DNA of 64,000 nucleotides from Candidatus Spongiisociaceae bacterium (GCA_965262915.1 OZ253564.1:3072001-3136000); one strand, 5' to 3'; counted from the stretch's first letter, positions 8,933-50,846 are shown. A program made the numbers and translations. Notes: generated by a model not told the origin, from the letters alone.

Positions 8933-10348
8933 TCAGCCGACCGCGCCCGCCTCCAGCATGTTGAGCTCGATGAGGCGGTTCATCTCGACCGCGTACTCCA
9001 TAGGGAGTTCCTTTACGATCGGCTCGATGAACCCCGCCACCACCATCGACGTGGCCTCGTCCTCGGTGAGTCCTCTGCTCATCAGGTAGAAGAGTTGGTC
9101 CTCGCCCACCTTCGATACGGTCGCTTCGTGGCCGATCTGGGTGTCCGCCTCTTCGATCTCCATATAGGGGTAGGTGTCCGACCGGCTGGCGTCATCCAGG
9201 ATCAGCGCGTCGCACCGGACGAACGACTTGGCCTTCTCGGCACCCGGCTCGACCCGTATCAGCCCGCGGTAACCAGCCCGGCCGCCACCCTTGGTGATGG
9301 ATTTGGACAGGATCGTCGAGGTGGTGTTGGGGGCGGCATGCACCATCTTGGCCCCCGTGTCCTGATGCTGGCCCGGTCCGGCGAAAGCGATCGACAGCAC
9401 CTCACCGTGCGCTCCGGGCTCCATCAGCCACACTGCCGGGTACTTCATCGTGAGCTTCGATCCCAGATTGCCGTCGACCCATTCCATGGTGGCGTCGGCG
9501 TAGACGGCGGCGCGCTTGGTCACCAGGTTGTACACGTTGTTCGACCAGTTCTGGATGGTCGTGTAACGACACCGGCCGCCCCGCTTTACGACTATCTCGA
9601 CCACGGCGGAGTGCAGCGAATCGGTCGAGTAGACGGGCGCGCTGCAACCCTCGACGTAGTGGCAGAACGCTCCCTCGTCGATGATGATCAATGTCCGCTC
9701 GAACTGGCCCATGTTCTCCGAGTTGATCCGGAAGTAGGCCTGGAGGGGCTGGTCGACGTGCACGCCCGGTGGAACGTAGATGAACGAACCGCCCGACCAT
9801 ACGGACGAGTTGAGCGCCGCGAACTTGTTGTCGTTGGGCGGGATGATCTTACCGAAGTGCTCCCGGACGAGGTCGGGGTGCTCCCTAACGGCCGAGTCCA
9901 TGTCCATGAACAGAACGCCGAGACTCTCGAGGTCCTCGCGATTCCGGTGGTAGACGACCTCCGACTCGTACTGGGCGGTCACCCCGGCCAGGAACTTGCG
10001 CTCTGCCTGGGGGATCCCCAGCTTCTCGTAGGTGTCCTTGATGGACTCGGGAACCATGTCCCAGTCCTTGGCCTGCTCCTCGGCCGGCTTGACGTAGTAG
10101 TAGATGTTGTCGAAGTCGATCTCATCGAGCAGCCCGCCGCCGCCCCAGGTGGGCATAGGTCGGCGCAGGAAGCGACGGTACGCCTTGAGGCGGAACTTGA
10201 GCATCCACTCCGGCTCGCCCTTGATGAACGACATCTCGCGGATGATTTCCTCTGATAGGCCCTTCTCGGGTTTGAAGACGTAGTCGTCCTCCGGATCACT
10301 CCAACCGAGCTTGTAGGCGCCGAGATCTATGTCAACTGTGGTGGTCAT
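8933..10348 (-). CDS. sufB: Fe-S cluster assembly protein SufB
   Basis: [64 protein letters not shown]. Confidence 0.97.
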
Positions 10349-10413
10349 GAGATGCTTCTACCGTAACCTCTGCTGTGTCTAGTCGGCCCCGATCGTCACG
10401 GGGCTGCACGACT

Positions 10414-10440
10414 TGATCATACCAACTCTCCTGGTCAATC
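10414..10440 (-). promoter_or_regulatory. Probable sufB -10 element (TATGAT) overlapped by an Rrf2/IscR-like imperfect palindrome
   Basis: Minus strand GATTGACCAGGAGAGTTGGTATGATCA, upstream of sufB. Confidence 0.35.
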
Positions 10441-10605
10441 AGGGCGGCAATCGGTGCTGACAGGGCGCTCGGGCAGGCGGACACGATCACCCCGTGTACT
10501 CACTCCCTATCCGGATGCTGTTCGGGAAACCCCCGATCACCATGGCCGCCCCATGAAATGTCGCAAGCTGTGTTCCCCGGGTGAGTGCCTATCCGTGCCA
10601 TTCTC

Positions 10606-12069
10606 CTAACGCCACGGCATGTCCGTAGGAGTGACCGGGTCGGGCATCATCGTGTCTCCCATGAGGTACCCGTCCACAGCTGTGGCGCAACTCCGGCCCT
10701 CGGCGATCGCCCAGACGATCAGAGACTGTCCTCGTCCCATGTCGCCGGCGACGAAGACACCCTCGATGTTGGTTGACCAGTTGCTGTTCCTGGCGACGGT
10801 ACCCCGGTCGGTCAGGCGGACTCCCAGCTGTTCCAGCATCGGCGAGCGTTCCGGTCCGGTAAAACCCAGGGCCAGCAGCACCAGGTCGGCAGGGTACTCC
10901 TCATCAGTGCCCTCGATCTTGTCGAAGGACATCCGTCCATCACGGAACGACAGGTCGACGCCGCGGGTCCGCAGGGCCGTCACTCGGCCCCGTCCGTTCC
11001 CGACGAACTCCTCGGTGTTGATGGCGAAGCGCCGCACTCCTCCCTCCTCATGGGCCGAGGAGACCCGATACATGAGGGGCCAGGTCGGCCAGGGTGTGCT
11101 GTCGGCCCGCGCGTCCGGCGGCCGGGGCATGATCTCGAACTGGTGCACGGAAGCGGCACCCTGCCGGTGGACGGTCCCCAGGCAGTCGGCGCCCGTGTCT
11201 CCCCCACCGATGATGATCACATGCTTGCCGGACGCGGATATCGGAGGCTCATCCGTGTCCCCGAACCGGACACGGTTGGCCATGGGGAGGAACTCCATGG
11301 CCTGGTGGATCCCGGCGAGGCGCCTTCCCGGAATGGGCAGATCCCGCCACCGGGTGGCGCCCGCGGCCAGGATCAACGCGTCGAACCCGGACATCAGGCG
11401 GTCGGCGGTCAGGTCGACGCCCACTTCGGCATCGACCACGAACTCGGTGCCTTCCGCTTCCATCTGGTCGAGACGCCGGTCGAGGACACGCTTCTCCATC
11501 TTGAACTCGGGTATGCCGTATCGGAGCAGGCCCCCGATGCGGTCGGCCCGTTCGTAGACCGTCACGGCATGTCCCGCCCGGGTGAGTTGCTGGGCTGCCG
11601 CGAGGCCGGCCGGACCGGACCCCACCACCGCCACCCGCTTGCCCGTGAGCGTGGTCGGTACGACCGGAGCCACCCACCCTTCCGCCCAGGCCCGCTCGAT
11701 GATCTCGAGTTCCACCTGCTTTATGGTCACCGGGTCCGAGTTGATACCCAGGACGCAGGCAGCCTCGCACGGCGCCGGACACAGCCTTCCGGTGAACTCG
11801 GGGAAGTTGTTGGTGGCGTGGAGGCGGTCGATCGCCTCCTTCCAGTTGTCGCGGTATACGAGATCGTTCCAGTCCGGGATGAGGTTGCCGAGGGGGCATC
11901 CGCCGTTGCAGAAGGGGATTCCGCAATCCATGCACCGCGATGCCTGGTCGCGGAGATCCTGGAGCGGGAACTCCGCGTAGACCTCCTGCCAGTCGAGGAG
12001 CCGTACATCGACCGATCGCCGGGAAGGCGTCCGGCGCCCGTGCTTGAGGAAACCCTTGATGTCACCCAT
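10606..12069 (-). CDS. gltD: Glutamate synthase small subunit
   Basis: [58 protein letters not shown]. Confidence 0.97.
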
Positions 12070-33744: not shown

Positions 33745-33864
33745 GTCAAACCCGCAGGACTGCAGGGTCGGCGTTACCCGCGGCTGCCCAGTCCCCCACT
33801 AACCTCGACAGCGCGATTGGAAAGAAGCCGGTCGGACCCGACAATCACATCACAGGAGTCTCTC

Positions 33865-35289
33865 ATTACCTCACACCCTCTCTACTGCGATCTGCTCGTT
33901 ACGGGCGGAGTGGTGGTCACTGTGGACGACCGGCGCCGGGTGATCGATCCGGGAGCGGTCGCCATTGCCGGAGAACGGATCGTCGCGGTCGGTAGCGCCG
34001 CCGACCTGGGCGGTTACCGGGCGAAGCGCGTCATCGATGCCAAGGGGAAGGCGGTACTCCCTGGCTTGATCGACACCCACCAGCATCTCTTCCAGTACCT
34101 GCTGCGGGGTCTGGGCGAGGGACTGGAGCTATGGCCGTGGCTGTCCGACTTCATGTGGCCGGTCACCACCACGATCTCCACTGACGAGGCCCGGATCGGA
34201 GCACAGATCGGAGCGGTGGAAGCGGCCCGCTCAGGAGTCACCACGGTTCTGGACAACCACTACGCACCCACCGATTTCGACTCGACGATGGCGGTGGCCG
34301 GCGCGATCGAGGAGGTCGGGATCAGGGGCGCGGTCGCGCGGGGCATGACCGGAGAGCTGACCGGGATGGCAGCCAAGCATGGCCTCGCCGGTGAGTTGTT
34401 CCGATACTCGAACCGCGAGGAGATCGAGATCAGCCGGGCGTGCATAGCGGCGCGACCGCCGACCAGCCGCGTGGGGGTCTGGCCGGCGCCGCTCAACATC
34501 ATCTATGTGGACCAGCGTCTGGTGGTGGAAGCAGTGGCTCTGGCCCGGGAGAAGGGCACCGGCTGGCACTCGCACTGTTCGGAAGCCTCCAACGATCCGG
34601 TCTTCTACCTCGAGGAATACGACCGCCGTCCGGTGGTATGGATGGCGGAGCAGGGTCTGCTGGGTCCCGAGACCACGCTGGCACACGGCATCTTCCTGGA
34701 CGATCAGGAGGTTGAACTGGTCGGGGACTCACGCACCGGCATCGCCTACTGCCCGATCTCGCACCAGTACATCGCGCTAGGCGTCATGCGCCTGCGCGAC
34801 CTGAGGAGCGCCGGGGCGACCGTGGGTCTGGGCCTCGACGGGGGCAGCGGCCACCGCTTGGACATGTTCGCCTGCATGAAGCAGGCGGTACTCCTGCAGC
34901 GTGTGCACTCGCAGAACCCCACCGAGTCGAACGGCGAGGAGGCCATCGAGCTCGCCACCCGCGTCGGCGCAGAGTACATGGGGATCGACGCCGGGGTCAT
35001 CGCGCCCGGAAAGCTGGCCGATCTGGTGATCGTCGATCAGTCCGGTCCGCACCATGCACCGCTCCACCGCACCGTCGCGTCCGTCGTCTACTCCACGAGC
35101 GCCGCCGACGTGACCCACACGATCGTCGGTGGAGAGGTGGTCTTCGAGGACGGCCACTGCACGAAGGTGGACGAGGCGGAGGTCATCGAGGAGGCGAACG
35201 GTCGGGCGGCCGATCTCGTCGTACGAGCCGGACTGGGCCCGCTCCTGGAACCGTGGCGGATGGGACCGGCACCCGGGGGGAGCCGGTGA
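33865..35289 (+). CDS. Atz/Trz (MTA/SAH deaminase-like) amidohydrolase, probable ATT start
   Basis: PGLIDTHQH, HSHCSE, AHG, GLDG, PGKLADL; AGGAG RBS 6 nt before ATT. Confidence 0.88.
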   Translation: MTSHPLYCDLLVTGGVVVTVDDRRRVIDPGAVAIAGERIVAVGSAADLGGYRAKRVIDAKGKAVLPGLIDTHQHLFQYLLRGLGEGLELWPWLSDFMWPVTTTISTDEARIGAQIGAVEAARSGVTTVLDNHYAPTDFDSTMAVAGAIEEVGIRGAVARGMTGELTGMAAKHGLAGELFRYSNREEIEISRACIAARPPTSRVGVWPAPLNIIYVDQRLVVEAVALAREKGTGWHSHCSEASNDPVFYLEEYDRRPVVWMAEQGLLGPETTLAHGIFLDDQEVELVGDSRTGIAYCPISHQYIALGVMRLRDLRSAGATVGLGLDGGSGHRLDMFACMKQAVLLQRVHSQNPTESNGEEAIELATRVGAEYMGIDAGVIAPGKLADLVIVDQSGPHHAPLHRTVASVVYSTSAADVTHTIVGGEVVFEDGHCTKVDEAEVIEEANGRAADLVVRAGLGPLLEPWRMGPAPGGSR

Positions 35290-35746: not shown

Positions 35747-36562
35747 GTGACTGCAGACACTCCCCTGCCCGCGGGCTCGCCATCCGGCCTCGCCCAGGCC
35801 ATAGAGATCGCAGGTGTTACCAAGCGGTTCACGATGTCGAGACGGCAGTTCCTGGTGGCGGTCGACGACATCGATCTCTCGGTGGCGCAGGGAGAGTTCG
35901 TTGCCATCATCGGTCCGTCCGGATGCGGCAAGTCGACCATCCTCCGGATGCTGGCCGGTCTGGAGAGGCCGACGGCGGGAACCGTGCAGCTCAACGGGGC
36001 GTCGCCCGCCGAGTTGGTGGCTGCCCACCGCCTCGGGGTTGCCTTCCAGGAGCACGCCCTCCTGCCATGGCTCTCCGCATGGGACAACATCGCCCTCCCG
36101 TTCCGGGTAATGGGCGCCAAGCCCGACGCCGACCGCATCTCCTCCCTCATCCGTCTGGTGGGGTTGAGCGGTTTCGAGAGGGCCCGACCCAAACAGCTGT
36201 CCGGCGGTATGCGGCAGCGGGTCGCCATAGCCAGAGCGTTGGCTCTCGAGCCCGAACTGCTGCTGCTGGACGAACCGTTCGGGGCGCTCGATGCGGTGAC
36301 GAGGCGCCGGATGAACCTGGAACTCCAATCCATCTGGGCGGAGCAGCGCATCACCTCCGTCCTCGTGACGCACTCCGTTGACGAAGCTATCTTCCTGGCC
36401 GACCGGGTCATCGTGCTCACCGAACGACCCGGCCGGATCAAAGTCATCGAGAAGGTCCCCTTCGGCCGGCCCCGGAGCCGGGAGTTGATGACCACCGAGG
36501 AGTTCCATTCCCTCGCTGACAAGCTGATGCTCGCCATCGACACCGGTGAGGGGACCGATTGA
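35747..36562 (+). CDS. ABC transporter ATP-binding protein (TauB/SsuB-like), no cognate permease adjacent
   Basis: GPSGCGKST, LSGGMRQR, LLLDEPFGALD, VTHSVDEA. Confidence 0.92.
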   Translation: MTADTPLPAGSPSGLAQAIEIAGVTKRFTMSRRQFLVAVDDIDLSVAQGEFVAIIGPSGCGKSTILRMLAGLERPTAGTVQLNGASPAELVAAHRLGVAFQEHALLPWLSAWDNIALPFRVMGAKPDADRISSLIRLVGLSGFERARPKQLSGGMRQRVAIARALALEPELLLLDEPFGALDAVTRRRMNLELQSIWAEQRITSVLVTHSVDEAIFLADRVIVLTERPGRIKVIEKVPFGRPRSRELMTTEEFHSLADKLMLAIDTGEGTD

Positions 36563-36841: not shown

Positions 36842-37807
36842 ATGACCGAGATCGAAGCGACTTGGGACTTTCGGGACCCGTACCTCTGGATGCAGAAGAC
36901 GGCCCGAAGTGCGCTGCCGCCCCTGATCATCACTGCCGCGATCAGCGGAGGCGGCCACGGTAAGGAGTCCAACCCGGCCCTCCCCGAAACCCCGGAGGAG
37001 CAGGCGGAGGAAGCGCGCAGGGCCTACGAAGCCGGCGCTTCACAGATCCATGTGCACGCCCGCGATCCGAACGACTGGAGCCAGTGCGCCGGCAACCCGG
37101 AGGACTACGGGCGGGTGAACCGGATGATCCGCGAGCAGTGCCCGGACGTGATCATCAACAACAGCACCGGAGGCGGTCCCACGTTGACCACCGAGGAGCG
37201 TTACTCACCCCTGTTCGCCGACCCGGCCCCCGATGTGGCAACGCTCAACCTCGGCCCGTTCGTCTCCAGGTTCACGATGCCCGAGCGCCCCGCCCATCTA
37301 CCCCACCCGCGCGGGCCTGTCGAGTACGACATGTGCAGCGGGACGACCTACGGCGAACTCAACCACTACGCGTCCGTAATCGCCGAGCGAGGAATGAAGC
37401 CCGAACTGGAGGTTTACGATCCGGGCCAGTACTGGGTGCTCCGAGACCTCATCTACAACCACAACGTCACACCGCCATACATGGTGCAGTTCGTCCTCGG
37501 CGCCCAGACCGCCTCGTTCCCGACCCCTGCCAACCTCACGTCGCTGATCAACGAGCTACCGGCCGGAGCTCTGTTCTCGGTGATCGGCACGGGCCCCTTC
37601 CAGATCCCTATGAACGTCCTCGGAATTCTCCTTGGAGGCCACGTTCGGGTGGGACTCGAGGACAACATCTACTACCGGAAAGGCGAGAAGGCGACCGGTA
37701 ACGCCCAGTTGGTGAGCCGCATCCGCCGTATCGCTGAGGAGATGAACCGCGAGATCGCCACCCCGGCCCAGGCACGCAGGATGCTGGGCCTTCCCCAGGT
37801 CGCATGA
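36842..37807 (+). CDS. Beta-keto acid cleavage enzyme (BKACE / Kce family)
   Basis: IITAAISG, NPALPETPEE, AGASQIHVHARD, NSTGG, KPELEVYD, GGHVRVGLEDN. Confidence 0.93.
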   Translation: MTEIEATWDFRDPYLWMQKTARSALPPLIITAAISGGGHGKESNPALPETPEEQAEEARRAYEAGASQIHVHARDPNDWSQCAGNPEDYGRVNRMIREQCPDVIINNSTGGGPTLTTEERYSPLFADPAPDVATLNLGPFVSRFTMPERPAHLPHPRGPVEYDMCSGTTYGELNHYASVIAERGMKPELEVYDPGQYWVLRDLIYNHNVTPPYMVQFVLGAQTASFPTPANLTSLINELPAGALFSVIGTGPFQIPMNVLGILLGGHVRVGLEDNIYYRKGEKATGNAQLVSRIRRIAEEMNREIATPAQARRMLGLPQVA

Positions 37808-37835: not shown

Positions 37836-39173
37836 GTGAACAGCAGCAGCCCGCGCCGCCAGGTTCTCGATGTCGGATCGTTCGAGGTCCGCGAGGTGAA
37901 TGCAGGTTCGACAACGTCGTTGCGCGACGGAGTGCTCACCATCGACACCGACGACCTCGCTGGGAGACTGGTGGACGGGACGAACTTCGCTTCGGTCTCG
38001 GTGGACATCGTGCGGCCCGGCGACTCCGTGCGGGTCATCAACGCTATCGATGCCGTGGAACCTCGTATCAAGGTCGATCCCCCCGGCACTGACTTCTCCG
38101 GTCTGCTGACGGGTCCGCGGCAGGTGGGCCTGGGCACCACTCATGCGCTCAAGGGCGTGTCGGTGGTCGAGACCGCGCTCCCGGTTCCGGGCGAACCCGT
38201 CTACTGGCGGGAAGCGGTCTTCGACATGGCGGGAACGAGCGCGAAATACTCACCGTTCTCGGATCTGGCCAACGTGGTGGTGTCCTGCGAACCGACCAGG
38301 GACCTGCTGGAGAGCAGCGGACGCCCCACCAACCTGTTCGAAGGGACACCGGAGGCGGTCGAATACAACAGGGCCGTCCGCTTAGCGGGGCTCAAGGCTG
38401 CCAAGTACCTGGCCGCGACGACGCTCGGACAGACACCCGACCGGGTGGATACGTTCGATCTGGCACCGTTGCCGGACAGCGAACTACCGGCCGTGGTCTA
38501 CCTGTACCAACTCGCCATCCCCTACCTGCACGGGGAGATCGCACCGGGTGCCGGCGCTATAGGTGGAGCGGCGCACCTCCCCACCCCTATCCACCCCAAC
38601 GAGTTGCTGGACGGGGCCCTGGTGTGCGGATGGAACGCGATCGCCTGCATGCGGGAACTCACCTACACCGTCCAGAACCACGCCATCGTCAAGGATCTGT
38701 ACGCCCGCCACGGCAAGGAGATCGACTTCCGCGGGGTGGTGCTGTTCACCAACGGGGACTCGCGGGCCAGCAAGGAGCGCCTCGCCAACCACGCAGCCGG
38801 CCTGGCGATAATGATGGGCGCCGAGGGTGCGCTGATCAACTACGCCGGGGGCGGGCATCCCGCCGTCGACGCCATGATGATCTGTCGGAACCTCGAGAGG
38901 AGAGGCGTGACCACCACCATGCTGTCCATGGAGATGGCTGCCAATCCCGGAGAGTCGGGGTTCGTCCATTTCGTCCCCGAGGCGGACGCCATCGTGAGTA
39001 CCGGGAACTACGAGGAAACCGTGACGTTCGAGGCGGTCGACCGGGTGATCGGCGGCGATTCCCTCATCCGGATCGATGGTGATCCCGCCGGGGCGTTCGA
39101 CGCTCCGCTGGCCATCGTGCTGGCGAGCACCCACCAGTTCGGTCACACCCGTATAAGGGGAGAGGAGTACTGA
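37836..39173 (+). CDS. Glycine/sarcosine/betaine reductase component B proprotein-like subunit (GrdE/GrdI-like)
   Basis: VRPGDSVRV...DAVEPRIKV, G.THALKGVSV, HPNELLDGALV, QNH...LYARHGKEIDFRGV, GGGHP, EADAIVSTGN. Confidence 0.88.
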   Translation: MNSSSPRRQVLDVGSFEVREVNAGSTTSLRDGVLTIDTDDLAGRLVDGTNFASVSVDIVRPGDSVRVINAIDAVEPRIKVDPPGTDFSGLLTGPRQVGLGTTHALKGVSVVETALPVPGEPVYWREAVFDMAGTSAKYSPFSDLANVVVSCEPTRDLLESSGRPTNLFEGTPEAVEYNRAVRLAGLKAAKYLAATTLGQTPDRVDTFDLAPLPDSELPAVVYLYQLAIPYLHGEIAPGAGAIGGAAHLPTPIHPNELLDGALVCGWNAIACMRELTYTVQNHAIVKDLYARHGKEIDFRGVVLFTNGDSRASKERLANHAAGLAIMMGAEGALINYAGGGHPAVDAMMICRNLERRGVTTTMLSMEMAANPGESGFVHFVPEADAIVSTGNYEETVTFEAVDRVIGGDSLIRIDGDPAGAFDAPLAIVLASTHQFGHTRIRGEEY

Positions 39174-39182
39174 GAGGCGCCC

Positions 39183-40511
39183 ATGGCCGGCATAGTTCAC
39201 TATCTCAACCAGTTCTTCGGAGGTCTCGGCGGCGAGGACCGGGCCGGAATCGGACCTGTGAGCGAAGCGGGCCCGGTCGGTACGGGCAGGGGCCTGGTCC
39301 GGTTGCTGGAAGGAGGCAACCGGATCGTAGGAACTGTCATCTGCGGCGACAACTACATCGCCCAGGGCGGCGAGGCGGTGGTCGACGAGGTCCTTGATCT
39401 GATATCGGCCCACGACCCGGATGTGGTAGTGGCCGGACCGGCGTTCGGATCCGGACGGTACGGCCTGGCCTGCGGCGCGGTCTGCCGGGCGGTGATCGAA
39501 CGGCTGGGCATACCGGCGGTGACGGCCCTCCATGCCGACAGCCCCGGCGCCCACGAGTTCCGCCCTTGGGTACCCGTCATCCCCACCGCCCAGACCGCGG
39601 CGGGGATGGGCGCGGCCCTCCGCGAAATGGCCCGCCTGGCGAACAAGCTGGGCCGGGGCGAGGAACTGGGCGGCGCCCGGGAGGAGGGTATCCTCACCAA
39701 GGGCCTCCGGCGCAACATCTTCGAGGATAGGAGAGGTTCCACCCGGGCAATCGAGATGCTGCTCGCCAAGATGCGCGGCGAGCCGTTCGAGACCGAGTGG
39801 CCCCTGCCCCGCTACGAGCCCGCCGAACCCGCCGAGCCGTTGGCAAAGGGCCGACACTTCCGGCTGGCGCTGGTGACCGAAGCGGGAATAGTCCCGGCAG
39901 GCAACCCCGACCGGCTGCCTTCGGGATGGGCTAGCGACTGGCTGAAGTACCCGATCGAGGGCAGGGACGGTTTTGCAGAAGGCGAATTCGAGTCGGTGCA
40001 CGGCGGGATCGACACCAGTCTCGCCAACCGCGATCCCGACCGCCAGGTCCCTCTGGACGCCACCCGGTTGCTGGAGACCGACGGCCGCTTGAGCCTTCAC
40101 GATGAGCTGTTCACCACCACGGGCAACATGGGTTCGCTCCGGGACATGACCCGTATGGGCGCCGAGATGGCACGGGCGCTGGTGGCGGACGGGGTCCAGG
40201 CGGTGATCGTGGGGGCCACCTGAGGGACGGGTACGCGTAGCGGGTCTACGCTGGCGAAGTCGATCGAGAACCAGGGAATCCCGGCCGCGCTGGTCACGGC
40301 TCTGGTGCCCCTGGCCGAGTCGGTCGGCGTCCTCCGCATCGTGGCGGGCACGGCCGTCACGCATCCGTTCGGGGACCCTGAGTTGGAGACCGCCGACGAA
40401 CTCGATTACCGCAGGCGGGTGGTGGAAACGGCCATCGCAGCACTCGAGGCGACCGTGTCGGAACCCACGGTGTTCGAAGTCGGCCGCCCGGCGCCGGCCG
40501 CGGTGTCATGA
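39183..40511 (+). CDS. Selenocysteine-containing reductase component B subunit (GrdB/GrdF/GrdH-like), Sec at TGA 40221-40223
   Basis: VHYLNQFFGGLGGED, ICGDNY, AGPAFGSGRYGLACG and HGG.D; GrdB homology continues in frame past TGA (AT-U-GTGTRSG...GIP...RIV...HPFGDP); SECIS hairpin downstream. Confidence 0.88.
40235..40251 (+). promoter_or_regulatory. Bacterial SECIS-like hairpin
   Basis: GCGTAG-CGGGT-CTACGC, a perfect 6-bp stem with a G/GU-containing loop, starting 11 nt after the in-frame TGA. Confidence 0.75.
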
Positions 40512-40666: not shown

Positions 40667-42139
40667 ATGGCTCGACGCCCGAACATACTGTTGCTCCAAG
40701 CCGATCAACTGGCCCCACACTTCCTGCCCGTATACGGCCATCCGGTCACCCTGGCGCCCAACCTCTCGGAGCTGGCCGGGAGCGGCGCCGTGTTCGACTC
40801 GGCCTACTGCAACTCTCCCCTCTGCGCTCCGTCCCGTTTCTCGATGATGACCGGGCAGATGCCGTCCGACATCGGCGCCTACGACAACGCCTCCCCCCTC
40901 TCCCCTGCCGTCCCCACCTTCGCCCACCACCTCCGGCGGGGTGGGTACCGGACGGTCCTGGCCGGGAAGATGCACTTCGTCGGACCCGATCAACTGCACG
41001 GCTTCGAGGAACGCCTCACCACCGACATCTACCCGGCCGACTTCGGGTGGACACCGGACTGGGACGACGCGGACCGAGATCCGGTCCGCTCCTACCTCCG
41101 CCAGGCGGCCCGTGACCTAAAGCGGGCCGGCGTATCGGGACCCACCCTGCAGATGCATTACGACGACGAGGTGACCCACCGGGCGGTCCGGTGGCTCCGA
41201 GGACCGGGCGACGGGGACAGGCCCTTTGCGCTGACCGTGTCCTTCATCCATCCACACGACCCGTTCAACATCACCCGAGCGTACTGGGACCGCTACCGGG
41301 GCCGTGCGATCGACGATCCGATCACCCCACCGGCGGCGACGGATGTGCCGCTCGACGAGCCTTCCCGGCAGCTGCGGGCGGCTCTCGACCTCGACGGCCT
41401 GGACCTGAGCGGCGCCGAGGTGCGCACCGCCCGCCGCGCCTACTACGCGGCCATCAGCTACCTGGACGACTGCATCGGTAAGGTCCTGGCCGCCCTCCGC
41501 GAGCGCGACCGTGGCCGGCCCACCGCGATCATCTTCGTGGCCGACCATGGAGAGATGCTGGGCGAGCGCGGGCTCTGGTTCAAGATGAGCTTCTTCGAGC
41601 GTTCGGCCCGGGTACCGATGATCATCACCGGTCCTGGCATAGCACCGACTCGAGTTGCTACGCCGGTATCCCTGATCGACCTCCTACCCACCCTCCTCGA
41701 CATCGCCGGCGTCGGTGCGGACAGCGCCGGTACCCCCGGAAGGAGCCTGGTCCCGCTGGCGTGTGGCGAACGGGAGACGAGCGCGCCGCCCGTCTTTGCC
41801 GAGATGCTTGGAGAAGGTGTGACGGACCCTGTGGTGATGGTCCGGGAGGACCGCTTCAAGTACATTTCCATCCCCCGAGCAGCTGCGGGCCTCTTCGACG
41901 TCGTCTCGGACCCCGAGGAGCTCTCGGATCTGGCCGGTGCCACCCGCTTCAGGGACGTGGCCGAGCGGCTGGCTGCTCGGGCAGGTGCACGCTGGGATCT
42001 CGCGAGGCTGAGGGCGGAGGTGGTGGCGAGCCAGAGGGACCGGAGATTGGTCCACCTAGCGCTGATCGCCGGCAAGCACACTCCGTGGGACTACTCGCCG
42101 GCGACCGAAGCGGCCGGCTCGTACATACGCAACGTCTGA
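40667..42139 (+). CDS. betC: Choline sulfatase-like sulfatase
   Basis: RPNILLLQADQL, YCNSPLCAPSR, GKMHFVGPDQLHGFEERLTTDIYPADFGWTPDW, DHGEMLGERGLWFKMSFFE. Confidence 0.88.
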   Translation: MARRPNILLLQADQLAPHFLPVYGHPVTLAPNLSELAGSGAVFDSAYCNSPLCAPSRFSMMTGQMPSDIGAYDNASPLSPAVPTFAHHLRRGGYRTVLAGKMHFVGPDQLHGFEERLTTDIYPADFGWTPDWDDADRDPVRSYLRQAARDLKRAGVSGPTLQMHYDDEVTHRAVRWLRGPGDGDRPFALTVSFIHPHDPFNITRAYWDRYRGRAIDDPITPPAATDVPLDEPSRQLRAALDLDGLDLSGAEVRTARRAYYAAISYLDDCIGKVLAALRERDRGRPTAIIFVADHGEMLGERGLWFKMSFFERSARVPMIITGPGIAPTRVATPVSLIDLLPTLLDIAGVGADSAGTPGRSLVPLACGERETSAPPVFAEMLGEGVTDPVVMVREDRFKYISIPRAAAGLFDVVSDPEELSDLAGATRFRDVAERLAARAGARWDLARLRAEVVASQRDRRLVHLALIAGKHTPWDYSPATEAAGSYIRNV

Positions 42140-42474: not shown

Positions 42475-43878
42475 TTACCGCCGCCACGGTACGAGCAGAC
42501 CGTGTAAGCCGGCTCGGTCGATCAGGTCATCGGCCCGGGCCTGCGCTTCGCTCATCACCGCCTCCTCGTCGACCATGGTGCAACGGCCGTTCTCCAGCAC
42601 GACGTTGCCGTCGATGATCGAATACGCCACATCCGATCCCCTGACACAGTAGGTAAGGGCGGAGACAGTCCTGTGCCACGGTGTGAGATGGGGACTGCGC
42701 ATGTCGACGACGATGATGTCGGCCAGCTTGCCGGGAGCGAGCACACCGGCGTCGATCCCCGCGTAGCGCGCTCCTTCTCTCGTGGCCATCTCCAATGCCT
42801 CTTCACCGTTGCTGATGGTCGGATCCAGGGTATGGACACGCTGGAGCAGGATGGACTGCTTCATCACCTCGAACATGTCCTGGCGGTGGTTGCAGCACGG
42901 ACCGTCGGTGCCGAGACCGATCGGCGCTCCGGAGGCGCGCAGGTCGCGCAAGCGCATGACGCCAAGGGCTATGTACTGGTGGGATATGGGGCAGTAGGCG
43001 ATCCCGGTCTCCGTCTCGCCCACGTGATCGATCTCGGTATCGTCGAGGTAGATCCCGTGAGCGATGGTCGCTTCCGACCCCAGGAGACCCTCCTGGTAGA
43101 GCCATTCGACCGGCCGGATGCCGTACTCCTCGAGATATGTGGGAGGGTCCTCGAGGCGCTCGGAGCAGTGCGTGTGCCACCCAACACCCGCCTCGCGGGC
43201 CAGGGCGACGCTCCGCCGGACCAGGTCCTGATCGTTGTAGATGATGTTGAGGGGCGCCGGCCACACCTCGACGCGGCCTCCGGCCGGGTACGACTCAATG
43301 GCCGTCGTAGTGATCTCGATCTCCTCGTCGTTGGAGTAGGAGAACAGCTCCCCGGCCAGGTTGGACCTCCGAGCGATGTCGGTCGCCTCCCCCGCGATTC
43401 CTCGGGCCACCGCTCCCCGCAGCCCCACCTCGCGGATGGCGCCGGCCACCGCCAGGGTCGTGTCGAGGTCGGACGGCGCGTAGTGGTGGTCGATGACAGT
43501 GGTGGTGCCCGCCTTGACAGCCTCCACCGCCCCCAGCTTGGCGCCGATCCGACCCTCGGCCAGGTTGATGGAGATCGAGTAGGGCCACATGAAGTCAGTC
43601 AGCCAGGTCCACAGCGGCATGCCCTCGCCCAACCCGCGCGCCAGACCCTGGAACAGGTGGTTGTGGGTGTCGATCAGTCCCGGCAGCACGGCGTGGCCGG
43701 TGCAGTCGATAGTGCGGCGTGCCCGGTAGCCGGCCAGGTCAGCGACCGGCCCGACCGCGACGATCCGGCTGCCCGTCACCGCCACGGCCCCCGGTTCGAT
43801 GACCCGGCGGTCGTCATCGACGGTCACCACTGACCCTCCGGTGAGCAGGATGTCGCAGTCCTGGCTTCTCTGGTTCAT
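42475..43878 (-). CDS. Atz/Trz amidohydrolase, close paralog of 33865-35289
   Basis: PGLIDTHNH, HTHCSE, GTDG; shares IAYCPISHQYIALGVMRLRDLR with the paralog. Confidence 0.92.
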   Translation of the reverse strand: MNQRSQDCDILLTGGSVVTVDDDRRVIEPGAVAVTGSRIVAVGPVADLAGYRARRTIDCTGHAVLPGLIDTHNHLFQGLARGLGEGMPLWTWLTDFMWPYSISINLAEGRIGAKLGAVEAVKAGTTTVIDHHYAPSDLDTTLAVAGAIREVGLRGAVARGIAGEATDIARRSNLAGELFSYSNDEEIEITTTAIESYPAGGRVEVWPAPLNIIYNDQDLVRRSVALAREAGVGWHTHCSERLEDPPTYLEEYGIRPVEWLYQEGLLGSEATIAHGIYLDDTEIDHVGETETGIAYCPISHQYIALGVMRLRDLRASGAPIGLGTDGPCCNHRQDMFEVMKQSILLQRVHTLDPTISNGEEALEMATREGARYAGIDAGVLAPGKLADIIVVDMRSPHLTPWHRTVSALTYCVRGSDVAYSIIDGNVVLENGRCTMVDEEAVMSEAQARADDLIDRAGLHGLLVPWRR

Positions 43879-43895
43879 CGGGCGGAACCTCCCTT

Positions 43896-44828
43896 TCATC
43901 CGGCGGCCGCGCCGTCCCGGTCGACTTCGGGGGCCGGGATCTTGAGCAGCCGACCGGCCGTACCCCCCATGATGGCTTCCAACTCCTCGGCGGTGAGTTC
44001 GGGCCCGCCAACCTGTTCGGCAACCCGGTTGACGCTCCGGAAGATGCCCGAAGCCACCCCACGGGAACCGGACTTGTGCTTGTCGTTGTTGTCCGACCCG
44101 TAGACCGCCCGATCCAGCGCGCCCAGGCTTCTCAATCTGCCGAGCACCCGGTACAGGTCACGGGGGTCCCCACCAGCGTAATAGGACAGGTCGGCGTAGA
44201 AGTTGGGATGGCGGGCCACGACCGCGATTCCTTCATCGACATAGGGAAAAGCCAGGTAGACGAGGACTTTGAGATCCCGGTAGCGAATGCCCAGTTCGTC
44301 GAGGAGCAGCGGCCGGGCGTGGTGCATGGGAGCGTTGATGATCGGTGTGAAGCCGGTGTGGGTGTGAATGGGGAGGTCGAGGTCGAGGCACTTCTCGTAG
44401 ACCGGCGCCAGCCTCGGGTCAGCAGGATCGTGGTGGTGGTAGGTGGGCAGTAGCTTCATCATGCGGAACCCGTACTCCCGGACGCAACGCTCGATCTCGT
44501 CGGTGGCCTCCCGCACGTCACGCAGCGGATCCACGCACACCACCCCATACAGACGGCCGGGGTGGGCAGCACACTGGGCCGCCGTGTAGTCGTTGGGTAC
44601 GTGCACCTCGTGCTCATCCGGGAACCGCGGATGGTAGGTGGTGCGGCGTAGGTCCGATCCGTGGGCCAGACCGACATCGATACCTGCCTGATCGAGCAGT
44701 TCCACCAGGGCTGCGCCGTCCGTCCACCGGTAGTCCCCGCCATAGGGCCGATACAACTCCTCCATCCACCAGACCGGTGCGTGGCGAGGGGTCTCGGTGA
44801 GGTAGAGGAGCACATCGACGGTAGGCAT
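43896..44828 (-). CDS. Amidohydrolase_2 family protein lacking the N-terminal HxH motif
   Basis: MPTVDVLLYL; HTHTG; YGSD; paralog of the adjacent gene. Confidence 0.85.
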   Translation of the reverse strand: MPTVDVLLYLTETPRHAPVWWMEELYRPYGGDYRWTDGAALVELLDQAGIDVGLAHGSDLRRTTYHPRFPDEHEVHVPNDYTAAQCAAHPGRLYGVVCVDPLRDVREATDEIERCVREYGFRMMKLLPTYHHHDPADPRLAPVYEKCLDLDLPIHTHTGFTPIINAPMHHARPLLLDELGIRYRDLKVLVYLAFPYVDEGIAVVARHPNFYADLSYYAGGDPRDLYRVLGRLRSLGALDRAVYGSDNNDKHKSGSRGVASGIFRSVNRVAEQVGGPELTAEELEAIMGGTAGRLLKIPAPEVDRDGAAAG

Positions 44829-44832
44829 CGGA

Positions 44833-45732
44833 TCAATCCATCCGGTACAGCCTGGCGGCGTTGCCGCCCACGATCGCGTCGATCTGCCCGGACGTGAAAG
44901 GCTCCCGGTCCGTACGCTGGGCCACATCGGCGAGTTCCTCCATAAGGTGGGTCCCGATCTGCTGGCCTCCCCCGGTCCGATCCTTGTCGTTGTTGTCCGA
45001 GCCGTAGACCACCCGGTCCAGAGCATCCAAGCCCCGGAGTTTGTCGAGGGCGTCGAAGAGGGGCTCCGGACCGGCCCCGACAAAATAGGCGATATCCGCG
45101 TAGAAGTTCGGATGCCGCGCCACCACCGCGATGCCCTCGTCAACGTACGGAAAGTTGATGTACGCGAGAACGCGCAGGTCGCGGTAGCGGATGCCGACCC
45201 GGTCGAGCGGTTCGGGGTGACCGTACCGGAGCGCCGCCGTGATGATCGGCGAGTACCCGGTGTTCACATGTGCCACGATGCCGAGTTCCAGGCAACTCTC
45301 GAGCATGGGCGCCACCGCCGGGTCGTCGATGTAGTAGTTCTGGTAGGTGGGTAAGAACTTCGACGACCTGAACCCGTATTCCTTCACGCAGCGACGCTGT
45401 TCGATCACCCCGGCTCTGACATCCCGCAGGGGATCGATGTTGGCCACACCGATCAGCCGATCGGGGAACCGGGCCACCTGGCGAGCGGTGTAGTCGTTGG
45501 TTACGAACAGGTTGCGCTGATCGGGGAAGCCGGGATGGTAGGTGGTGCGGCGGATGTCGGAGCCCTGGACCATCCCGATGTCTACCCCGGCCCGGTCGAG
45601 GATGCCCACGATCGCTTCGCCGTCGGTCCAGATGTAGTCGCCGCCGTAGGGCCGGTACAACTCTTCCATCCACCAGAGCGGAGCCTGCTCGGACGACTCG
45701 GTCAGATGGAGATGGCAATCGACCGTTATCAT
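44833..45732 (-). CDS. Amidohydrolase_2 family protein
   Basis: MITVDCHLHL; NDY...PDRLIG; HPNFYAD; YGSD. Confidence 0.88.
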   Translation of the reverse strand: MITVDCHLHLTESSEQAPLWWMEELYRPYGGDYIWTDGEAIVGILDRAGVDIGMVQGSDIRRTTYHPGFPDQRNLFVTNDYTARQVARFPDRLIGVANIDPLRDVRAGVIEQRRCVKEYGFRSSKFLPTYQNYYIDDPAVAPMLESCLELGIVAHVNTGYSPIITAALRYGHPEPLDRVGIRYRDLRVLAYINFPYVDEGIAVVARHPNFYADIAYFVGAGPEPLFDALDKLRGLDALDRVVYGSDNNDKDRTGGGQQIGTHLMEELADVAQRTDREPFTSGQIDAIVGGNAARLYRMD

Positions 45733-45825
45733 CAGGCTGCTCCCCCATCGACCCTGCGGATGCCGCGATGGCCGCCTCCAGAGTGTGTTCCGGGTCCGAG
45801 GGGGGCGCCCGCCATGGGAGCGGAG

Positions 45826-47049
45826 CTACGTATAACTGATGACTCCTTCCTCGGCCATATGTCTCAACTCAGCCTCCCCGTACCCTATCAAGCCTCCCAG
45901 GATCTCCTCGTTGTGCTGGCCGAGGGCAGGCCCGGTGGTCCGCACCTGTCCAGGAGTCGCCGACAGACGGCCGACCAGGTTCTGCATGCGCACAGGCCCG
46001 AGGACGGGGTCCTCGACGGTGGTGACGCTCTCGTTGTGGGCGAATTGCGGATCCTCGAAGATACCGGCGATATCCAGTATCGGGGCGATGGCCGCTCCGG
46101 CGGCCCCGAACGTGGCCACAACCTCGTCGGCATCCCTCTCCGCCACCCACGCTCCAATGACCTCGTCCAACTCGTCTTGGTGCTGGAGCCGTCCGGTGTG
46201 GTTGGCGAACCACTCCTGCTCGGCGAGTTCGGGATGCCCGACCAGGTCGACCGTCCGTTCAGCGGTCGACTGCGAGGAAGCCGACAGTCCCAACCAAACG
46301 CCATCTCTCGACAGGTACGCGTTGCGCGGCGCGGTGAATGGGGCCCGGTTGCCGCTCCGGCCCTGTGCGACTCCTAGCTGGTCGTACACACTGGCCTGCG
46401 GTCCCAGCAACCAGAAGATAGGTTCGTATATCGACAGGTCGATCATCTGCCCCACCCCGGCCTCCGCTTCCCTGGCCCGGAGAGCCGCCAGGGTCAGGAA
46501 GGCGCCGCTGATCCCGGCTATGCCGTCCGCCAAGGCGAACGGCGGCAGGGTCGGTGGCCCGTCCGGATACCCGTTCATATGGGCAAAACCCGACATCGAC
46601 TCGGCCAGAGTGCCGAAACCTGCACGCTCCCGGTACGGACCGGTCTGACCGAAGCCGGTCACCCGTACCATCACCAGCCGCGGGTTTATCTCGCGCAGGT
46701 CGTCCCAACCGAGGCCCCACCGCTCCATGGTCCCCGGACGGAAGTTCTCGACGAGGACATCGGCCCCCTCCACCAGCCGCAGCAACGCCCGTCGCCCGAG
46801 ATCGTGGGAGAGTTTGAGGGTTACGGCCCGTTTGTTGCGGTTGACCACCGCCCACCACAGCGAGACCCCGTCCTTCTCCCAGCCCAGGTTCCGGAGGCTG
46901 TCCCCGCCGGGATGCTCCACCTTGATGACATCGGCGCCGAAGTCCCCCAGCAGGGTGGCCACCATCGGCCCGGCGAACAGCGTGGCCGCATCGACGACCC
47001 TCAACCCCTCCAGGGGGCCTTTCACGTCGTTGTTGAGGTTCTCTTGCAT
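45826..47049 (-). CDS. Class III CoA-transferase (CaiB/BaiF)
   Basis: GPLEGLRVVD, LGDFGADVIKVE, NRNKR, ADVLVENFRPG, GFGQTGPY. Confidence 0.95.
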   Translation of the reverse strand: MQENLNNDVKGPLEGLRVVDAATLFAGPMVATLLGDFGADVIKVEHPGGDSLRNLGWEKDGVSLWWAVVNRNKRAVTLKLSHDLGRRALLRLVEGADVLVENFRPGTMERWGLGWDDLREINPRLVMVRVTGFGQTGPYRERAGFGTLAESMSGFAHMNGYPDGPPTLPPFALADGIAGISGAFLTLAALRAREAEAGVGQMIDLSIYEPIFWLLGPQASVYDQLGVAQGRSGNRAPFTAPRNAYLSRDGVWLGLSASSQSTAERTVDLVGHPELAEQEWFANHTGRLQHQDELDEVIGAWVAERDADEVVATFGAAGAAIAPILDIAGIFEDPQFAHNESVTTVEDPVLGPVRMQNLVGRLSATPGQVRTTGPALGQHNEEILGGLIGYGEAELRHMAEEGVISYT

Positions 47050-49606: not shown

Positions 49607-50846
49607 CTACTCGACGTCGTCGGTCAGAGTCCAGATCTGCTTCAGCGGGAGCTCGGTCTGGATCTCCTTCGGAAGACGGTCGTAGCTCTCGGTGATCTTG
49701 CGGATCAGATCGCCCGAGCTCCAGGTGCGAAGGTTGAACCATTGGTCCCGCGCCAGTCTTTGCGCACCCCGGTTGAAGCCGCTCCACGACACGAACAGCG
49801 CCTTATCGGCGCCGAAGTTCCTGGCGGCGTCTAAGCCTGAATCCACCGATGGGGAGCACGCAGCGGACATGGAGATATGGTGGAAATGCCTCCTGATCTG
49901 CGGCGATAGCTATTGGTAAGCATGGTTCGGTCCTGGGAAGAGGAGCAACTTCCTGTGAGTGGTGGATCCCGGAGATCGCCCTGGTCAGGATTGGTTTTCG
50001 GAACATGAATCGGTGGATTCAGGCTAAGAGGTTGCGCACCGTGGGCGCGTCCACGGCCATCTGTCCTGACTTGACCTGGACCGCGATCCTCGGCGCATTC
50101 AAACCGAGTGGCCCTGAGCCAGCCAGCATGTCGACCCCGCCGTCGGGACCGGCCGGGGACCGGTTGGTGATGTAGCCCTCCGCCCTGAGAATCGCCTCAA
50201 CCAATCTCTCCAGCCCATGTCCTTTGAACGTCCGGGCTATGTGGGCCGCGATGCGGTCGGTGGCCAGCTGCTCCATATCCACCGCGCCTTCCTCGTCGAT
50301 GGAGTCCGTGCCGTCCTCGTGAGACACGTCGTCCGAGTGACGGAGTTCTGGATCGCGCCCGGTCCGAGAGAACTCGGCCAGACGGGCGACGGCGTTGTTC
50401 CGCTTGGGCCTGAAGACTGTATGCAGGCCGCCCAACGTGTGGAGAAGATCTTGGCGGAGTGAACTTCGTGGTTGCTCAGTCCGTAGCCAGTCCACGGGGC
50501 GAACGTGACGGCAGCCGTCAGGGTTGTCAGGCCGGAACTCGTATCCGCCCGCGTAACGTCCTACTGCCAGGGTCCTCGTCCTCTTGGCGGGCAGCACCAC
50601 CAGATCGCCGGTGTCGATCTCATGGACGAAGCGGAAGATCTGCCCGGCGTGGTTCGCCAGCCTGTTTCCCTCGGCGTAGCCGGTAGCTGTGAGCATCTCG
50701 CGGACCTGATCGCGTGTCGTGACGGCCGACAAGTCCCCCAGGTCATCCCAATCGATAACGACTACGCCCTTCTCCAAGGCGAAGTCCTCATACTCACCGT
50801 CCTTGCCGGCGCGGACCACCCATGCTCTCATCGTTCGAGCCTCCAT
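49607..50846 (-). pseudogene. Mrr-like restriction endonuclease interrupted by a 188-bp MITE
   Basis: AWVVRAG..., DGGVD...VQVKS; the C-terminal part FGADKALFVSWSGF...LPLKQIW lies beyond the insertion. Removing the element plus one TSD restores the frame (VRNLLDAARNF). Confidence 0.9.
49836..50023. mobile_element. 188-bp MITE, perfect 15-bp TIR CCTGAATCCACCGAT, 5-bp TSD CTAAG (IS1380-like ends)
   Basis: CTAAG|CCTGAATCCACCGAT...ATCGGTGGATTCAGG|CTAAG. It can alternatively be parsed as a 16-bp TIR with a TAA TSD. Confidence 0.9.

Follow-up and report, generated by a model that had tools for sequence, protein, structure and literature searches.

In the 64,000-nucleotide stretch of Candidatus Spongiisociaceae DNA analysed here (the window), a gene of the selenoprotein B family is interrupted by an in-frame TGA followed by a hairpin, and this observation is confirmed. 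The best overall explanation, which appears likely, combines readthrough of the TGA as selenocysteine (Sec) with a Grd-type protein B for a substrate other than glycine. The synthesis of one 442-aa selenoprotein by such readthrough, as inferred in the first-pass annotation, is strongly supported and, judged from comparative sequence evidence, nearly certain: the TGA is conserved, the segment downstream of it evolves slowly, and the hairpin stem exhibits both silent-site invariance and covariation.

Reading frame and annotation

The frame opens with an ATG at 39183 on the plus strand and continues for 346 codons to the in-frame TGA at 40221-40223, the putative Sec codon; 95 further open codons (40224-40508) then lead to a TGA at 40509-40511, and the complete frame (39183-40511) would encode a 442-aa member of the GrdB/GrdF/GrdH/FarB family with Sec347 in the context ATU-GTGTRS. 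The first-pass annotation had placed the end of ORF 39183-40223 at the Sec site of GrdB, with the same frame continuing to 40511, and these coordinates are exact. The read-through protein matches TIGR01918, the model of the glycine/betaine/sarcosine/D-proline reductase selenoprotein B family, with 427.5 bits over model positions 2-431 of 431 (cut-off 65.45), compared with 332.7 bits for the part before the TGA alone, and the 95 residues after the TGA match positions 347-431 on their own (E 1.1e-20), as they do in TIGR01917. GC3 is 0.84 in the segment after the TGA and 0.83 upstream of it. The Pfam family PF07355 is matched with 390.7 bits (cut-off 22), the match ending at residue 346, that is, at Sec.

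In an AlphaFold model (mean pLDDT 91, pTM 0.58) the tail after Sec is folded into a second domain, the post-TGA part supplying strands and helices of this predicted C-terminal domain, and Sec347 follows strand 340-344 and stands where helix 348-362 begins. No relative with a solved structure was found by sequence search, and Foldseek and VIA-align returned generic flavodoxin-like matches only; the best of them involved residues 1-164 (Z 10.7), and the C-terminal domain was hardly covered.

The C-terminal segment is lost by standard gene callers. Among the database matches listed, 116 of 120 protein products end at the same residue before Sec, and a split at Sec is therefore the usual database state of the selenoprotein B family; gene division of this kind arises routinely in annotation, and the family is a known one, in which GrdB has long been established as a selenoprotein (PMC1794560, PMC3091704). 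Only two of the 120 listed matches (P0079 and P0090) run full length, with C at the Sec position, and these may be Cys homologs or a database rendering of U.

Conservation downstream of the TGA

One GTDB scan yielded 553 confirmed relatives, and the best 80 loci of these were analysed, providing 84 aligned Sec sites, or 85 with the window. Throughout this set of the best 80 loci plus the window the Sec-site codon is TGA (85 of 85 copies), and an open frame of 84-111 codons lies behind it in 84 copies, the remaining one being cut by a contig end. The closest copies are at L010-L018, nine loci with 76-81% identity whose titles read Acidimicrobiia, Ca. Spongiisociaceae or, once, 'bacterium', and the window nests among them in a clade with 100% SH-aLRT support in a quick tree of 81 rows, from which four partial rows were dropped and which carries a long-branch warning. 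For these ten Acidimicrobiia copies the pooled Nei-Gojobori dN/dS is 0.20 before the TGA and 0.11-0.14 after it. By this measure the post-TGA segment is under purifying selection, and the decay (dN/dS near 1) that the first-pass annotation had named as contrary evidence was not observed.

Constraint at silent sites is concentrated in the hairpin. In the same ten copies codons +1 to +3 after the TGA are free at silent sites and codons +4 to +9 are invariant; all five four-fold codons within the hairpin are invariant, compared with 18 of 148 elsewhere in the gene, and it is at the hairpin that the gene has its longest invariant run, 20 nt from 40233 to 40252. The covariation analysis across orthologs proposed in the first-pass annotation was based on 84 rows, 80 of them distinct, with one minus-strand copy left out. 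Stem cells are 93.4% paired, with 47 double changes at three pairs, a level reached in none of 500 shuffles and compared with 22-67% in slid controls, these counts being of sequences rather than events and inflated by relatedness. RNAalifold recovered the same five core pairs unaided. A19 accompanies U27 in 21 of 21 copies, a change that may have arisen once, and G28 accompanies C18 in seven of seven. A Cys-to-Ser change at codon +6 is paired with a silent change on the opposite stem arm (21/21 copies), and the hairpin contains the codons TCT and CGT, found elsewhere in these genes at 4/201 and 13/319, respectively. As judged from this alignment, the stem covaries across phyla.

Structure of the predicted SECIS hairpin

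Eleven nucleotides (40224-40234) separate the TGA from the predicted bacterial SECIS hairpin, a 17-nt element at 40235-40251 on the plus strand (nt 15-31 from the U of UGA) with a 6-bp stem, core pairs 16-20 with 26-30, a 5-nt loop CGGGU and GG at 22-23; its size and position are precisely those given in the earlier annotation. The folding energy of the 17-mer is -6.2 kcal/mol (z -2.0), a stability equalled in 8 of 200 shuffles, and in contexts of 40-101 nt its z is only -0.1 to -0.6, which is not significant. The window contains 1436 TGA triplets. A loose bSECIS-like shape is found at 983 of them when no energy filter is applied; a stem of at least six Watson-Crick pairs whose loop lies at a distance of 16-37 nt is found at 34, and at 4 this distance is 16-19 nt. 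Taken alone, the hairpin is weak evidence for Sec insertion.

The bacterial SECIS consensus, as given in PMC13188914, comprises a 3-9 nt loop, a 4-16 bp stem, a G in the first two loop positions, a loop located 16-37 nt from the UGA and a free energy of -7.5 kcal/mol or lower. The window hairpin has the consensus shape (5-nt loop, 6 bp, loop starting with CG, spacing 17 nt); the energies to be set against -7.5 kcal/mol are -6.2 for the 17-mer and -11.4 with the stem enforced in 45 nt, where the unconstrained fold shifts the register. In this 45-nt context ViennaRNA prefers the shifted register (-14.6 versus -11.4 kcal/mol, a gap of 3.2) and gives the originally proposed stem a probability of 0.01. 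The shifted register is preferred in 6 of the 10 Acidimicrobiia copies, and the original one in 68 of the 75 other copies; the original register appears to be favoured, because it is supported by conservation and covariation.

The description of the hairpin as a textbook E. coli SECIS holds for spacing and position, since it shares with the fdhF minimal SECIS a 17-nt hairpin at nt 15-31, 11 nt after the UGA, with G23 in the loop. However, among the fdhF determinants bulged U17, G23 and U24 (listed in PMC8659212), only G23 is present, U17 being replaced by a paired G17 and U24 by G24, and there is no conserved lower stem. The GU noted in the loop does exist at 24-25, but it does not provide U24, and no more than 10 of the 85 copies have U25. 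The window hairpin belongs to the GrdB-family stems and has a mismatch between C21 and U25. Neither a tRNA-Sec nor a SECIS family was detected by ARAGORN in the window and 28 loci or by Rfam at gathering thresholds in the window; Rfam SECIS models have been reported to miss bacterial elements. A scan for promoters and terminators gave matches at chance level only.

Relation to glycine-specific GrdB

The window protein carries UGTGTRS, with UxxGxxS in place of UxxCxxC, the motif named for GrdB in PMC13188914. UxxGxxS is found in 21 of the 81 tree rows, ten of them Dehalococcoidia copies. The protein matches two of the six parts of the published GrdB motif, which is complete in 35 of 52 CxxC copies and in none of the 21 UxxGxxS copies, and the GrdF motif is absent (both motifs as given in PMC9751293). 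Scores against the specific models of both subunits are likewise below their cut-offs: 407.8 bits versus an equivalog cut-off of 602.2 for TIGR01917 (GrdB), 425 versus 800 for NF040794 (GrdF), 235 versus 780 for NF040793 (GrdG) and 382 versus 775 for NF040795 (GrdH), the last being lower than the GrdF and GrdB scores; NF053623 (FarE) gives 145.9 versus 675, and there are no farA or farC neighbours. Motif and model scores together indicate that the window selenoprotein B is not a glycine-specific GrdB, and the original label, taken in that sense, was overstated.

Other members of the family are varied in motif and context. The Dehalococcoidia MAG loci L001-L009 and L033 are of the UxxGxxS type and have a perfect 7-bp stem; L002-L009 carry grdB with no grdE in the 8 kb flank, and L033 has two grdE genes together with grdC (9320-10774) and grdA. 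Further motif classes, UxxSxxC and UxxGxxC (L047, L054, L070, L080; L051, L053, L064; L040), have partners without the pyruvoyl Cys. The type represented by L051, L053, L061 and L064 adjoins a sodium:sulfate-family transporter, and such neighbours suggest other substrates.

Partner subunit and gene neighbourhood

The gene immediately upstream (37836-39173, plus strand) encodes a GrdE/GrdG/GrdI-like partner subunit of 445 aa (PF09338) and ends 9 nt before the grdB start. Asn267 of this protein aligns with the pyruvoyl-forming Cys, and Cys271 is retained; a Cys near residue 242 is present in 46 of the 74 GrdE-family partners examined. The pyruvoyl group derives from the GrdE Cys, and in C. difficile the peptide 242-266 carries the cofactor, as stated in PMC9908766.

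A BKACE gene (beta-keto-acid cleavage; 36842-37807, plus strand; PF05853) precedes that of the partner, scoring below all NCBIfam equivalog cut-offs; comparisons with NCBIfam, PDB and the ESM Atlas yielded no assignment of its class. Enzymes of this kind convert a beta-keto acid and acetyl-CoA to an acyl-CoA and acetoacetate. BKACE is located directly 5' of grdE in all nine Acidimicrobiia loci, with 91-96% identity, and in all nine the BKACE-grdE-grdB trio is intact, with grdE adjoining grdB. Within the flanks examined, it was found near none of 11 Dehalococcoidia and Acidobacteriota UxxGxxS copies.

A TRZ/ATZ-type amidohydrolase gene (33817-35289, plus strand), a less constant neighbour, is linked upstream in six of the nine loci, with a downstream paralogue in two more. 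The gene of a nitrate/sulfonate-type ABC ATPase (35747-36562, plus strand) has no adjoining permease or binding-protein gene called in the window; in relatives, by contrast, genes of NMT1-like binding proteins and of permeases are found close to the cluster. Downstream of grdB, the choline-sulfatase gene betC (40667-42139, plus strand; TIGR03417, 587.7 bits, cut-off 433) adjoins the cluster here and in one of the nine Acidimicrobiia loci, and it was rejected as a core part of the system on account of this single adjacency. A convergent block on the minus strand (42475-47049) contains, according to domain profiles, a second TRZ/ATZ amidohydrolase, two Amidohydro_2 proteins and a CoA-transferase III; the cluster is adjoined by one or more Amidohydro_2 genes in nine of nine loci and by a CoA-transferase gene in one of nine. 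The paralogous TRZ/ATZ pair (33817-35289 and 42475-43899) and the two paralogous Amidohydro_2 genes (43896-45732) flank the cluster from opposite strands, and comparisons of these amidohydrolases gave no substrate.

Two further features of the window were noted. An antisense ORF of 626 codons (38484-40364, minus strand) overlaps grdE and grdB and failed a codon-position GC filter; it resembles the shadow frames that are common in genomes of high GC content. At 49607-50846 (minus strand), sequence resembling a restriction endonuclease (Mrr-type, by eye) is divided between an ORF of 275 codons and a short one downstream of it, and the gene may be broken.

Selenocysteine machinery and other Grd components

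None of selA, selB, selC, selD, grdA or grdC is present within the 64-kb window, and a motif scan of the loci found SelA and SelB only in the clostridial L034, L035, L042 and L045, three SelD matches being spurious. The genomic background was obtained from the supplementary tables of PMC12008989 on 98 UBA5794 draft genomes, which are tied to the analysed loci by lineage only and do not tabulate selC. In these tables grdB occurs in 12 of the 98 genomes, and all 12 have selA, selB and selD, which are found together in 65 of 98 overall; the same 12 also have grdA (PF04723 in two pieces), a GrdE-family gene (PF09338) and a GrdC-family gene (PF19364; PMC12008989). Genes grdA, grdE and grdC occur together in 12 of 12 genomes with grdB and in only 1 of 86 without it, and grdB is enriched among sponge-associated genomes (8/14 versus 4/84; PMC12008989). 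Cytochrome c oxidase (coxA) is present in 10 of the 12, the host lineage thus mostly having this enzyme, and pta is present in none (PMC12008989). Six of the 12 grdB genomes, when looked up, were sponge-derived SZUA-232/VXMP01 with 66-67% GC, compared with 65.7% in the window. SZUA-232 is taken here to be the same as Spongiisociaceae.

At the ortholog locus L016 (77% identical) grdC is identified by NF040746 with 591 bits, above cut-off (L016:3291-4712, minus strand), and a second selenoprotein gene, grdA, with the context CFV-TGA-TA (CxxU), overlaps it downstream (L016:2800-3249, minus strand), about 3 kb upstream of the grdB ortholog. This grdA has no comparable perfect SECIS stem, and it therefore gives no independent support for the hairpin shape. 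Sec machinery has been reported in the sister order (10.64898/2026.04.03.716425) and as enriched in sponge symbionts (PMC5649159). Slaby bin76, in which SelA and SelB are present, was rejected as direct support and serves only as background, because it is a member of a different UBA5794 family and lacks grdB.

Proposed reaction and substrate

It is nearly beyond doubt, from the conservation described above, that SelB acting on the in-frame hairpin would deliver Sec-tRNA to the UGA at 40221 and so give one 442-aa protein. From family knowledge and gene context, this would very likely be the Sec subunit of the substrate-specific protein B in a complex of the glycine-reductase type, its partner being the GrdE-like product of 37836-39173 in uncleaved form. 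The selenolate of Sec347 would attack the alpha-CH2 of an X-CH2-COO- substrate and expel X. GrdA, through its Sec, would take over the carboxymethyl group and hand it on to GrdC, the genes of both lying elsewhere, and would be re-reduced by thioredoxin. The losses of UxxCxxC and of the pyruvoyl Cys suggest a substrate needing no Schiff base, and it is reasonably probable that the substrate is neither glycine nor sarcosine and has a leaving group of this kind; candidates would be a betaine-like onium compound or another heteroatom-substituted acetate. More tentatively, the substrate may be the acyl product of the neighbouring BKACE, with acetyl leaving a FabH-like GrdC as acetyl-CoA, the BKACE co-substrate. 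Against such a link as a general rule, 4 of the 12 grdB genomes have neither carnitine dehydrogenase (cdhA) nor BKACE in the tables of PMC12008989, and the Dehalococcoidia copies have other neighbours.

GrdC and the fate of the acetyl group

GrdD carries the acetyl-thioester cysteine. No grdD was found in the window or in any of the nine Acidimicrobiia loci, and the KO table for the 98 UBA5794 draft genomes has no grdD row (PMC12008989). Release of the acetyl unit as acetyl-CoA is proposed because GrdD appears to be missing. The survey of GrdC tails covered 39 complete grdC genes in the analysed loci, one open-ended gene and the partial genes being dropped. From the conserved C-terminal motif to the end of GrdC there are 51-66 residues in all 21 unfused loci with an adjacent grdD and 24-41 in all 15 loci, L016 included, with no grdD in the examined DNA (11 of these having more than 3 kb of downstream sequence and 4 ending less than 700 nt after grdC). 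An extension of about 30 aa is thus present in 21 of 21 cases with grdD and absent in 15 of 15 without it. GrdC-GrdD fusions are found in L035, L045 and L049. The FC cysteine is kept in 39 of 39 GrdC proteins, two with weak FabH-family matches. It is conceivable that GrdD docks on the C-terminal extension, and that GrdC is able to transfer acetyl to CoA by itself.

The strongest competing view, itself rather unlikely, is that Sec is inserted and acetyl phosphate is made as usual, through a divergent, unlinked GrdD or the housekeeping PlsX. Known protein C consists of GrdC and GrdD and forms acetyl phosphate, as described in PMC9908766, and GrdD and PlsX both match PF02504. However, PF02504 is present as a single copy in each of the 12 grdB genomes, as in 82 of 86 grdB-less ones (PMC12008989), and loss of the GrdC tail tracks the absence of grdD. 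Acetate kinase (ackA) occurs without pta in 8 of the 12 grdB genomes, and its presence in all 8 cdhA-positive grdB genomes fits acetyl phosphate and speaks against release as acetyl-CoA; however, it is missing from the other 4, and xsc, present in 5 of the 8, would explain those cases (PMC12008989). Because of this co-occurrence, ackA was rejected as evidence for Grd-derived acetyl phosphate.

Alternative functions and readings

A glycine betaine reductase of the GrdH/GrdI type, fed by choline sulfate (through betC) and by carnitine (through BKACE and betainyl-CoA) and releasing trimethylamine, would be a special case of the preferred explanation and is slightly less probable than the conventional acetyl-phosphate route. 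The partner is unprocessed, as is GrdI, and the neighbours betC and BKACE point to betaine chemistry, BKACE being a step of the carnitine-to-betaine route (as described in PMC9321204); cdhA is found in 8 of the 12 grdB genomes (PMC12008989), and carnitine genes are enriched in sponge symbionts, as reported in PMC5649159. On the other hand, the GrdH score of 382 bits lies far below 775, the betC link is not conserved, and neither carnitine dehydrogenase nor a betaine transporter was seen among the scanned neighbours (amidohydrolases, an NMT1-type transporter, GcvT-like and cupin proteins). Moreover, 7 of the 8 cdhA-bearing grdB genomes have two BKACE genes and grd-less sisters with cdhA can have one, and for this reason the linked BKACE may not be the one of carnitine metabolism.

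An independent function of the selenoprotein, as a peroxidase or redox protein of a symbiont exposed to oxygen, is improbable. GrdB reportedly shows peroxidase activity, according to the title of one paper; coxA is common in these genomes, and no grdA or grdC lies within the window, but both resolving cysteines are lost and grdB, grdE, grdA and grdC travel together in 12 of 12 genomes. It is less probable still that the TGA is a true stop, marking a pseudogene, a sequencing error or two genes, the second being a 68-aa ORF from GTG 40305. TGA is the commonest stop in the window (24 of 29 genes) and 346-aa products are listed in databases; nevertheless, the codon at this site is TGA in all 85 aligned copies, purifying selection and silent-site constraint extend between it and GTG 40305, no purine-rich ribosome site precedes that GTG, and the post-TGA part forms strands and helices in the modelled C-terminal domain. 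A genome-wide reassignment of TGA to Trp or Gly, which has nothing beyond the open frame in its favour, is refuted by the same stop usage and by the gene's own terminal TGA, standing where orthologs use TAG or TAA, and can practically be disregarded.

Comparison with known systems and implications

Readthrough at a Grd-type protein B for a non-glycine substrate thus remains the preferred explanation, and the system can be compared with four known ones. It shares with clostridial GrdB/GrdE the full-length homology (408 bits to TIGR01917), the Sec position, the stem at nt 16-30, the GG of the loop and the upstream partner, but differs in having UxxGxxS rather than UxxCxxC, in failing the GrdB motif, in a partner without the pyruvoyl Cys, in an operon without grdA, grdC, grdD or trx, and in a lineage with no detectable grdD and mostly with cytochrome c oxidase. 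Similar scores relate it to sarcosine GrdF/GrdG, although they are far below the cut-offs and the GrdF motif is absent. The fluoroacetate system FarB/FarE of Cloacibacillus porcorum also has a B subunit without CxxC, an unprocessed E subunit and unlinked A and C components, and betaine GrdI is likewise unprocessed (PMC10838667). The losses of CxxC and of the pyruvoyl Cys are therefore not new in kind, as both have been described for FarB/FarE and the latter also for GrdI. FarE differs in lacking both cysteines, whereas the window partner keeps the second, and BKACE takes the place of radical SAM and antiporter genes.

In the open literature searched, neither grd genes from Acidimicrobiia nor a class lacking GrdD was found described; the main text of PMC12008989 gave no matches for 'grd', 'glycine reductase', 'betaine' or 'seleno', the enrichment appearing in its supplement only. 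Grd enzymes have been described as working only in anaerobic environments (10.1101/2022.07.06.499078). It may tentatively be suggested that sponge symbionts respiring oxygen, together with some Chloroflexota and Deltaproteobacteria, possess a GrdD-free Grd-type class of enzymes with the window protein as a substrate-binding selenoprotein. In this class a tail-less GrdC would pass acetyl to CoA and a BKACE-coupled, acetyl-CoA-neutral cycle would strip an onium or heteroatom group from a host metabolite, serving catabolism rather than Stickland energy conservation.

The readthrough itself amounts to an annotation correction, the selenoprotein family having been known for a long time. Of greater significance is the variant, which is conserved in a lineage mostly endowed with cytochrome c oxidase and has neither the resolving cysteines nor the pyruvoyl site nor, it appears, GrdD. 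If the proposal is true, the Sec machinery that has been reported to be enriched in sponge symbionts would acquire a specific function. The capacity of GrdC to act in the absence of GrdD could then be tested directly, and the way would be open to a new substrate for selenium-dependent cleavage of C-X bonds.
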